The translations under genes and the position numbers were made by a program. From the IMG/VR virus record IMGVR_UViG_3300044652_000025, positions 64,001-128,000 of that record: 64,000 nt of DNA. One strand, given 5' to 3'. The notes below the pieces were generated by a model. The model made no database searches. It had not been told where the DNA came from and saw only the letters and a list, made by a program, of their open reading frames with translations. This DNA comes from a virus. Taxonomy: Duplodnaviria; Caudoviricetes. Every line of letters starts with the position of its first letter. Position 1 is the stretch's first letter. This document shows, piece after piece, positions 61,385-62,735 of this stretch.

Positions 61385-62043
61385 TTAGGGCAGCCACCCC
61401 GGTCCGGGCAGCGGATCGGGCTCCAGATTGGAGTACGGGTAGACGATGACCTTCGACAGCGGAACGAGCGTGCCGGTCAGGAGATCCGACACGAACTCCC
61501 CGATGGCGTTCATCTGAATGGTCGCCTCGTACATGACCTCGTCGGTCTGCCACGGCGTGCCCGGTGTCGCCGCGAAGCCCGCCACCCCGACCTGGTCGAA
61601 GTTGAAGTTGATGGCGATGAACTCGTTGTCCTCGATGTAGGCCCGGAACTGGGAGGTCGGGATGCTCTCCTGGCCGAAGGCCATGATCCGCACCAACTCA
61701 TCGAACAATCTGTCCCGCTCCAGGGACGTCAAGGCGATGGCCGTGTAGCTGGCGGTCCCCTGGAAGCGCCAGCGGGTGTACTGGCGCATGCCGTCGTCGC
61801 CCTCGGCGATCTCGATGTGGGAGATTCCGGCCCGCTCCAGCTGGGCCGTGGGGGTGAAGTCCACCCAGACGGCCGGGTAGTCCTCCCGCTCTACCGGGAA
61901 GTCGATGCCGACCTTGGTGTTGCGAAAGTCAGCCTCGATGTACTCGTTGTCGAGGGTCTGGCGCATGGCGTCGGTCAGGACCGTCTTGACATAGGTCAGG
62001 AAAATGGTGACGGCACCCCCTTGCGCTCATCAGTCAGGAACAT
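61385..62043 (-). CDS. tail terminator/completion protein with an anomalous start (ATG at 62043 out of frame, or ATT at 62005)
   Basis: FPVEREDYPAVWV, ALTSLERDRLFD; the N-terminal FLTYVKT segment lacks an in-frame ATG. Confidence 0.7.
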
Positions 62044-62735
62044 CAGGCCGCCCTCCTGCGCCGGTAGGTGTCGTCCACGGCGAAGACCGTCTGCGGCGGG
62101 ATCCGGTGCCGGGCGATCGCGTCGATCAGGGACTGCTGGAGGAAGCCCCGACCGATGAGCCCGGGATGACGCCAGCGGACACCGACATTGCCCCGGGCCA
62201 CGGCTCCACCGACACGTCCGGGGGTGGTCTCGGGGGCTGCGGCCTCGCGGCGGGCGATCCGGCCCGGGGCGCCGGGGTAGGCCCTCGGTACCCAGATGAG
62301 CGTCCCGAACCGGCCGCGGATCTGCTTGCGGGATCCGATCGGGGCGGCCTTACGGAAGATGAGCACCTGCGTCTTGCCCGAAGCTGTGACTCGCGTCCTG
62401 GCCCGAGGGTTACGTTGCCGCTCAATACCGGTCGGATCGTCGATCCACATGGGGATCGTCTTGCCCGCCAGGGAGCGCATGGTGAAGGCTCTGATGCCCT
62501 GCTCCTGGTACCAGACGTAGTCGTCCCGCCAGCCGATCCCGAAGTAGCCCGTCCCGGCCAGGACGTAGAGTCGGGCGGTCGAGGCGCCGGAGAGCTTCGG
62601 GGACCGGAGCCGGGCCAGGTCGAGGGCGTCCTGACCGATGACCCTCGCCGTCGGCGCCGCCAGGCCAGGGATCTCCATGACCACCCCGGTGGGGATGCCG
62701 GTGGGCTGCGGCGGCGGAGACTGGACGAAGGTCAT
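62043..62735 (-). CDS. neck/morphogenesis protein
   Basis: P..SG, YQEQG, WRHPG...FL (HK97 gp10-like pattern). Confidence 0.6.
   Translation of the reverse strand: MTFVQSPPPQPTGIPTGVVMEIPGLAAPTARVIGQDALDLARLRSPKLSGASTARLYVLAGTGYFGIGWRDDYVWYQEQGIRAFTMRSLAGKTIPMWIDDPTGIERQRNPRARTRVTASGKTQVLIFRKAAPIGSRKQIRGRFGTLIWVPRAYPGAPGRIARREAAAPETTPGRVGGAVARGNVGVRWRHPGLIGRGFLQQSLIDAIARHRIPPQTVFAVDDTYRRRRAA

Follow-up and report, generated by a model that had tools for sequence, protein, structure and literature searches.

The 64,000-nucleotide window analysed here (bases 64001-128000 of a 151,490-bp IMG/VR virus record, G+C 65.8%) carries on its minus strand a gene, assigned to the phage tail terminator, that is interrupted in its first codons by 38 nt. 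The TGA (62045-62043) of the upstream 230-aa open reading frame (ORF) overlaps an ATG at 62043-62041, and the frame opened by this ATG translates to MFLTDERKGVPSPFS and ends at TGA 61998-61996, inside terminator codons 3-4. The body of the gene lies in a frame that is open from TGA TGA (62032-62027), reads AQGGAVTIFLTYVKTVLTDAM and holds no ATG, GTG or TTG until ATG 61966. Within this region the 8-mer TTCCTGAC stands twice, at 62040-62033 and at 62002-61995, i.e. 38 nt apart, and a Shine-Dalgarno (SD) sequence, AAGGGGGT, ends 9 nt before an ATT in the body frame. All these features had been listed in a preliminary description made from the letters of the window, and all were confirmed in the sequence (Table 1).

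The repeat actually comprises 11 nt with one mismatch (ATGTTCCTGAC and ATTTTCCTGAC). An 8-mer repeated within 50 nt is frequent by chance in 64 kb; the features that are not due to chance are the position of the repeat on the start codon, the restoration of the frame to the N-terminus of the family, and the recurrence of the 11-nt duplication in three related loci (L058, L061 and L064). The layout of the ancestral SD and the ATG overlap (Table 1) is found also in insert-free relatives such as L012 and L013, as GGAGG followed by cTGATG.

To locate the N-terminus of the protein, homologs were collected from 5.8 billion proteins, and 120 relatives of the terminator were found. The closest, 205-206 aa long, have MFLTHLKT, MFLTELKT or MYLTYVKT as their N-terminus, with Met1 in the alignment column of the ATT, and about 110 relatives begin M(F/Y)L..(L/V)KT exactly at this position, K7 being at least 90% conserved among homologs. 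Homolog N-termini of the MxxTxxKT type had been predicted beforehand, and the closest relatives indeed align with their Met1 on the ATT. The database entry for the product of the window phage (P0001) exists only in a 193-aa form beginning at Met 61966; a start at this codon would drop 13 residues, which make up most of the conserved N-terminal helix (residues 2-17). Gene callers probably misannotate this terminator, making it 13 residues too short here and too short or wrongly extended in relatives.

Table 1. Features of the tail-terminator locus in the window
Feature	Position	Strand	Remarks
Upstream 230-aa virion/neck-region gene	62043..62735	minus	From the ORF list; its TGA overlaps the leader ATG
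Ancestral SD, AGGAGGG	62051..62057	minus	7 nt before ATG 62043; now serves the leader ORF
Leader mini-ORF, MFLTDERKGVPSPFS	61996..62043	minus	15 codons and stop; old terminator start plus relic of the endonuclease ORF
5' copy, ATGTTCCTGAC	62033..62043	minus	Original terminator start, captured as start of the endonuclease ORF
Unique relic core (27 nt), TGATGAGCGCAAGGGGGTGCCGTCACC	62006..62032	minus	Remainder of the Endonuclease VII-type homing endonuclease gene
Second SD, AAGGGGGT	62015..62022	minus	Ends 9 nt before ATT
ATT, proposed initiation codon	62003..62005	minus	Aligns with Met1 of homologs
Replaced segment (population level)	61990..62035	minus	46 nt, against 8 nt (CAAAGAAC) in the uninterrupted allele
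Internal ATG, codon 14	61964..61966	minus	Start picked by gene callers; 193-aa product
Tail-terminator gene	61385..62005	minus	206 codons from ATT, plus stop; phrog_2748 match
Tail sheath gene	61321-59894	minus	Directly downstream of the terminator gene

Insert alleles and related endonuclease genes

The identical 193-aa product is encoded on further contigs, and the DNA was compared for three JGI contigs of this phage from other samples (L006, L007 and L008). When these were aligned with the window over identical flanks and an identical terminator gene, the insert measured 38 nt in the window and L007, 89 nt in L008 and 188 nt in L006. The shorter inserts are internal in-frame deletions of the longer ones and form a nested series, in which the old ATG and the common TGA continue to delimit one ORF (15, 32 and 65 codons for the 38-, 89- and 188-nt inserts, respectively). 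The SD sequence, the ATT and the leader frame survived every successive deletion, and the ATT is invariant across the four contigs and the Logan unitigs.

The region was also compared with Logan contigs of four soil runs; as these are contigs only, allele frequencies are rough and rare variants not visible. One 15.6-kb contig spans the site in the 38-nt form of the window, and in run X3 the insert form alone was assembled, at depth 17. The assembly graphs of runs X5 and X9 break at 61989 and 62036: short unitigs of X5 carry the form of the window, and other unitigs of both runs join 61989 to 62036 with 8 letters between them, replacing 46 nt. Rebuilt from the window coordinates, this uninterrupted allele, which is 38 nt shorter, begins ATG TTC CTC AAA GAA CTC AAG, i.e. 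MFLKELKTVLTDAM (MFLKELKT), with its ATG overlapping the upstream TGA, and it is present in the same soil runs at comparable depth. The 5' copy in the window is identical to the uninterrupted start up to ATGTTCCT, and codons 4-6 are rewritten in the cassette allele (TYV vs KEL).

The preliminary description had asked for read support against an assembly error, and the 38-nt form recurs in an independent JGI contig (L007), in the Logan contig of 15.6 kb and, from other soil runs, in short unitigs. Since independent contigs and unitigs carry both the insert and the uninterrupted form, the insert is real and the site is polymorphic. An assembly or sequencing artefact, for which one could point to the origin of the record as a metagenome assembly and to the graph breaks in two runs, is practically negligible as an explanation: the identical form recurs in independent samples and assemblers, and the breaks are explained by true allelic variants. 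A precise 38-nt excision joint (ATG-MFLTYVKT) was not reported in the Logan contigs, where rare variants escape detection. The cassette allele and the uninterrupted allele have identical flanks but disagree at 8 of 12 nt in a short stretch at the insertion site itself, a difference that looks like co-conversion or endonuclease-driven divergence of a target site.

The origin of the insert is not visible from the window sequence alone and came from comparing the sister alleles and relatives. The 65-codon ORF of the 188-nt allele (L006) matches positions 52-80 of the 82 positions of Pfam Endonuclease_7 (E 4e-5; 23.8 bits, just above the curated cut-off of 23.6) and is 50% identical over 36 residues to the C-terminus of the full-length enzyme of L058. 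Scans of metagenome and viral contigs yielded about 150 loci with homologous terminators. Full 152-aa Endonuclease_7 genes (E ~1e-23) lie directly upstream of the terminator in L058, L061 and L064; with L040 included, the Endonuclease_7 genes at the terminator site have E values of 1e-22 to 1e-23. The terminators of L058, L061 and L064 are 42-44% identical to that of the window, and the insertion point, after nt 11, is the same. Each of their nuclease ORFs opens with the initial 11 nt of the respective terminator gene, ATG/GTG TTC ATG AC, and the same 11 nt are repeated at the 3' junction as ATT/ATC TTC ATG AC. Here the nuclease ORF ends 10 nt past the ATT/ATC that aligns with terminator Met1, and a GGAGGT lies inside its last codons. 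Because the 5' and 3' junctions of these relatives repeat the first 11 nt of the terminator, both insertion point and architecture match those in the window, and the insert derives from an Endonuclease_7 gene of this kind.

The 15-codon relic of the window is itself too short to score against Pfam Endonuclease_7. Its catalytic core is not intact, since the window keeps 27 nt and L006 lacks profile positions 1-51; the missing core indicates that the element is a pseudogene relic and not a working endonuclease. A search of the window phage genome for the relic protein and for Endonuclease_7 revealed no other copy. Another locus, L014, carries an analogous leader, MYLRQHKGVPPST, followed by a stop.

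Variants of the arrangement occur in other loci. L040 (positions 105-660) encodes a 180-aa Endonuclease VII protein with extra Cys-rich N-terminal motifs, which begins ...VLKTETH, and its terminator restarts at ATC TTC CTC CTA GAA ACG AAG; here the nuclease may have entered behind codon 8 (LKT) and replaced eight codons, in a contig that is cut just upstream. L015 (positions 972-1600) and L078 are arranged differently: an Endonuclease_7 gene separates the terminator from the upstream gene, the apparent terminator start is a GTG that shares bases with the nuclease stop (GTGA) and lies three codons ahead of the usual position, and ACG stands at the usual Met position.

Start codons across the terminator family

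For a survey of start codons, 110 non-redundant loci with the N-terminal motif of the family in register were taken, and the codon aligned to residue 1 was read. It was ATG in 61 loci, GTG in 15, TTG in 2, ATC in 10 and ATT in 7, the rest having short N-terminal extensions; ATT or ATC (hereafter ATH) accordingly occupies the start position in 17 of the 110 relatives (~15%). The usual ATG layout is cTGATG overlapping the upstream stop, like the 5' copy in the window. The ATH loci include every relic- or nuclease-bearing lineage except L015 and L078, and they also include loci free of a nuclease, among them L010, L011, L045, L049, L050, L060, L092, L116 and L117; the ATC of L011, a sister lineage, might be a scar of complete endonuclease loss. 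L049, L045 and L050 lack any in-frame canonical start upstream, and downstream the first such codon comes at position 73, 34 and 38 of the gene's codons, respectively; as no canonical start offers an alternative, the ATH codon is the sole route to the full protein in these three loci.

The SD sequences differ as well. The median energy of the duplex with the anti-SD is -12.7 kcal/mol at ATH sites vs -8.1 kcal/mol at ATG sites (one-sided Mann-Whitney p 5e-6, inflated as the loci are related), and the second SD of the window reaches -13.9 kcal/mol. On a FastTree phylogeny of the proteins, the distribution of ATH requires 10 changes, of which well-supported branches force at least 5, and ATH is concentrated in a 20-row clade that holds the window and most of the nuclease-bearing loci.

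Two of the relatives have Ile at the Met position. P0082 (L009) was considered as an ATT-type case and rejected, an in-frame GTG three codons upstream being an ordinary start; P0025 (L010) is a further ATT candidate. In the annotations of two nuclease-free ATH loci, gene callers gave P0025 a 19-residue N-terminal extension overlapping the upstream gene and chose an internal GTG start for P0008 (L011). For both, a better fit than the called start is the ATT or ATC that follows GAGGAGGA or GGGAGGT where the family's proteins begin.

Explanations for expression of the interrupted gene

These comparisons show the 38 nt to be what remains of a homing endonuclease gene of the Endonuclease VII type, and they make it likely that the terminator starts at ATT 62005, probably in coupling to the leader. 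The endonuclease gene inserted 11 nt into the tail-terminator gene of a ~151-kb soil phage, its ORF taking over the ribosome-binding site, the ATG and the first 3 2/3 codons of the terminator, and the 3' end of the cassette brought a proposed replacement start composed of a strong SD, an ATT or ATC and the first codons in rewritten form. In-frame deletions then eroded the endonuclease, from 188 to 89 to 38 nt, leaving the 15-codon leader ORF. In the present form, the terminator would be translated from ATT 62005, the initiator tRNA inserting Met to give MFLTYVKT... at full family length. Ribosomes should load at the leader ATG, which retains both its TGATG overlap and, 7 nt upstream, the ancestral AGGAGGG; their path of 15 codons would take them over the second SD and the AUU to the UGA, 7-9 nt beyond the AUU, and by terminating there they probably help initiation at the AUU. 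Near-cognate start codons are read by the initiator tRNA, and an AUU start would therefore yield a product beginning Met-Phe-Leu-Thr-Tyr-Val... with native length.

Among the options named in the preliminary description, AUU initiation or re-initiation after a leader peptide is the one that fits, given ATT/ATC in 17 of 110 relatives, the stronger SD sequences and the several loci without an alternative start; judged by sequence comparison, AUU is most likely the codon used. In all four relic forms (the three alleles and L014) the frame that begins at the old ATG has stayed open as far as the UGA within codons 3-4, through 3-4 independent deletions, for which the chance probability is ~1-4%. 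This retention is suggestive of termination-reinitiation coupling. Any reason for the cassette to carry ATH rather than ATG can likewise be put only conditionally: the third base of the start codon may belong to the nuclease target, in which case an ATH start could be a scar of immunity that persists after the nuclease is gone.

Several points weigh against this interpretation. The in-frame deletions number just 3-4 events, which leaves the above chance level of ~1-4%, and the relatedness of the compared loci, which inflates the Mann-Whitney p, affects the SD comparison. Use of AUU is deduced from comparing sequences. In E. coli studies AUU is reportedly a weak start (Hecht et al., 10.1101/063800), and the host of the phage may differ. 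L058, L061 and L064 have an ATG at codon 3 that could serve instead of the ATT/ATC, and L015 and L078, with an upstream Endonuclease VII gene but a GTG start, show that ATH is not obligatory for such cassettes. Finally, the co-occurrence of the uninterrupted allele would permit complementation of a defective allele, which we consider improbable for the reasons given below.

The structure of the duplication had raised the idea of translational bypass as in T4 gene 60, in which ribosomes starting at ATG 62043 would take off at CUG/ACU (codons 3-4) and resume translation at the matching CUG/ACC, 38 nt further on, again giving MFLTYVKT. The take-off and landing sequences match over 8 nt (TTC CTG AC), the gap contains an SD-like element, CUG is followed by ACU, a codon rare in this phage (6.6% of Thr codons) though readable by wobble, and T4 gene 60 cassettes are also linked to a mobile endonuclease in the account drawn on here (10.1101/2022.08.31.505936). 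However, sister alleles and relatives have 89, 188 and ~450 nt between the same duplication edges, distances at which a hop is implausible, and the take-off codon is not followed by an in-frame stop. The region folds no better than shuffled sequences (minimum free energy -26.2 vs a shuffle mean of -31.6 kcal/mol, z +1.5) and offers no take-off hairpin, the nascent peptide would have just 3-4 residues at take-off, and ATH with its SD accounts for all loci. A gene-60-like hop across a gap that varies from 38 to 450 nt is therefore very improbable, and we give no better chance to a mixed case in which the gap is gene-60-sized by coincidence and a fraction of ribosomes from the ancestral ATG hop from CUG/ACU to CUG/ACC beside AUU initiation, which would make the decaying homing endonuclease the source of a bypass that yields the MFLTYVKT protein. 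Two other routes make use of the leader end, where the leader stop overlaps the body frame: a -1 frameshift at CCA UUU UCC UGA, which would add 14 residues, and re-initiation at the CUG of CUGA (61999-61996), which resembles AUGA/GUGA coupling overlaps and would cost 2 residues. Neither tRNA-Phe (UUU to AUU) nor tRNA-Ser (UCC to UUC) re-pairs in the -1 frame, so that the slip suggested earlier finds no suitable P-site tRNA; in most ATH relatives codon 3 could not act as a start, whereas the ATH codon keeps its position. We regard this pair of routes as improbable, if slightly less so than the hop.

Initiation at ATG 61966, as called, would give a 193-aa protein without the 13 N-terminal residues. 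This codon is the sole in-frame ATG, GTG or TTG, and databases list the 193-aa form, but it has no SD before it (GTCCTGACCGACGCC ATG), the 13 residues lost are conserved and form most of a confidently predicted helix, the homologs have 205-206 aa, and the ATH relative L049 has its next canonical start only at codon 73. We hold such a start to be unlikely, and to the same degree the notion that the insert allele is defective for the terminator and kept by complementation from co-infecting phages with the uninterrupted allele. Complementation would draw on the uninterrupted allele found at comparable depth in the same soil runs; against it, four contigs share one and the same intact terminator ORF, each successive deletion spared the SD, the ATT and the leader frame, run X3 assembled the insert form alone, and insert-free relatives use ATT/ATC too. 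Of the preliminary description as a whole, then, the statements on the sequence were borne out, the option of AUU re-initiation fits the evidence, and the hop and the -1 slip found no support.

Translation from ATT 62005 behind the relic would account for an apparently broken essential gene without special recoding. The soil phages moreover display all stages of the life cycle of one homing endonuclease at a single site: the empty site, full genes (in distant relatives) and relics of 188, 89 and 38 nt.

Gene neighbourhood and comparison with known systems

The terminator gene belongs to a myovirus tail module on the minus strand (63.5-58.7 kb of the window), in which two unnamed genes are followed by the terminator gene, the tail sheath (phrog_2839), the tube (phrog_2756) and a tail assembly chaperone. 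An AlphaFold2 model of the terminator, built on 69 homologs, has a pLDDT of 88.9 and a confident N-terminal helix (residues 2-17). In Foldseek searches of the PDB the model matches tail terminators with probability 1.0 and a modest TM of 0.35-0.47, namely those of cyanophage A-1(L) (gp7), Sf14, Bas63, PhiTE, lambda (gpU) and T5 (p142); the entries matched include 8kef_a, 9c39_F, 9mt4_F, 3fz2_C and 8bcu_A. The label of tail terminator, proposed from the letters alone, is supported by this predicted fold and by the position beside the sheath and tube genes. With tblastn, the protein is ~30% identical to unnamed genes at the same position in Mycobacterium cluster C phages and in Rhodococcus phages Finch and E3. 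A DNA search of GenBank phages with the region gave no matches, Pfam assigned no families to five neighbouring proteins, and a scan of viral contigs with a single protein found no relatives, alignment-based scans being the ones that did find them.

Homologs of the upstream 230-aa gene also precede the terminator gene in relatives. The phrog_2819 profile (152 positions) matches the upstream protein only at residues 25-103; the counterparts in the cluster C, Finch and E3 phages have ~145-158 aa vs 230 aa in the window, and the extra C-terminal part (...GNVGVRWRHPG...) is conserved among soil relatives. Two terminator homologs, P0096 and P0112 (~40% identity), lie on 151-157-kb contigs of NCBI Streptomyces assemblies, which hints at a phage group infecting Streptomyces-like actinobacteria and at some 'genome' contigs there being whole phage genomes. 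The homolog P0116 has 299 aa with a Pfam PF05345 (He_PIG, Ig-like) domain and may be a terminator with an added display domain.

By comparison of sequences, an AUU start behind the relic appears well supported. A search of the literature for homing endonuclease cassettes linked to ATT/AUU or ATC starts in phages found no paper in the searchable literature, so that a cassette whose nuclease takes the start of a gene and repays it with an SD and ATT/ATC is apparently undescribed there. AUU-initiated genes themselves are known, infC and pcnB of E. coli among them. An ATT-initiated gene, ebpA, has also been described in Enterococcus faecalis (PMC4447247). As in these three genes, a near-cognate AUU behind an SD would serve a protein needed in small amounts; unlike in them, the ATT/ATC of the window type came with, or associates with, a mobile element and is found repeatedly in a family of phage genes, and autoregulation of the type known for IF3 (infC) is not implied for the terminator gene.

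In the part of the gene 60 literature drawn on here, the conserved signals of bypass are RNA structures, a stop or hungry codon at take-off, an SD in an AU-rich gap and residues of the nascent peptide (10.1101/2022.08.31.505936). The T4 gene 60 cassette with MobA, as these sources present it (10.1101/2022.08.31.505936; review PMC5009743), resembles the insert of the window in being a short non-coding insert in an essential phage gene with an associated mobile endonuclease. The insert clearly shares only matched edge codons and an SD-like element in the gap, and the rare ACU may or may not count as a hungry codon; the insert lacks a take-off stop, a hairpin and a nascent-peptide signal, its length varies from 38 to 450 nt, and expression of the gene would be explained by a new start codon, not by hopping.

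F-CphI of cyanophage S-PM2, a free-standing homing endonuclease with Endonuclease VII motifs (PMC6083498), is similar as a phage-borne nuclease of the Endonuclease_7 fold beside a conserved gene, with presence/absence polymorphism and decay. Unlike elements of the F-CphI type, that of the window is a 27-nt relic without catalytic residues, lies within the first codons of its target gene, uses the start of that gene and supplies a replacement ATT/ATC. The WHO elements of Torulaspora and Lachancea yeasts (PMC7282813) likewise integrate into a gene without splicing, provide a replacement copy of the displaced end and leave the old end as a relic; in the window the old ATGTTCCT(GAC) is kept upstream, and the new SD, the ATT and the rewritten codons 4-6 stand downstream. 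WHO proteins, however, are eukaryotic, intein-like LAGLIDADG proteins that replace the 3' end of FBA1, whereas the window element replaces the 5' end of a phage gene (the start and ~6 codons) and leaves one 11-nt relic. As the nuclease of the window cassette is of the Endonuclease_7 type and has no homology to WHO/HO, the two resemble each other in strategy only.

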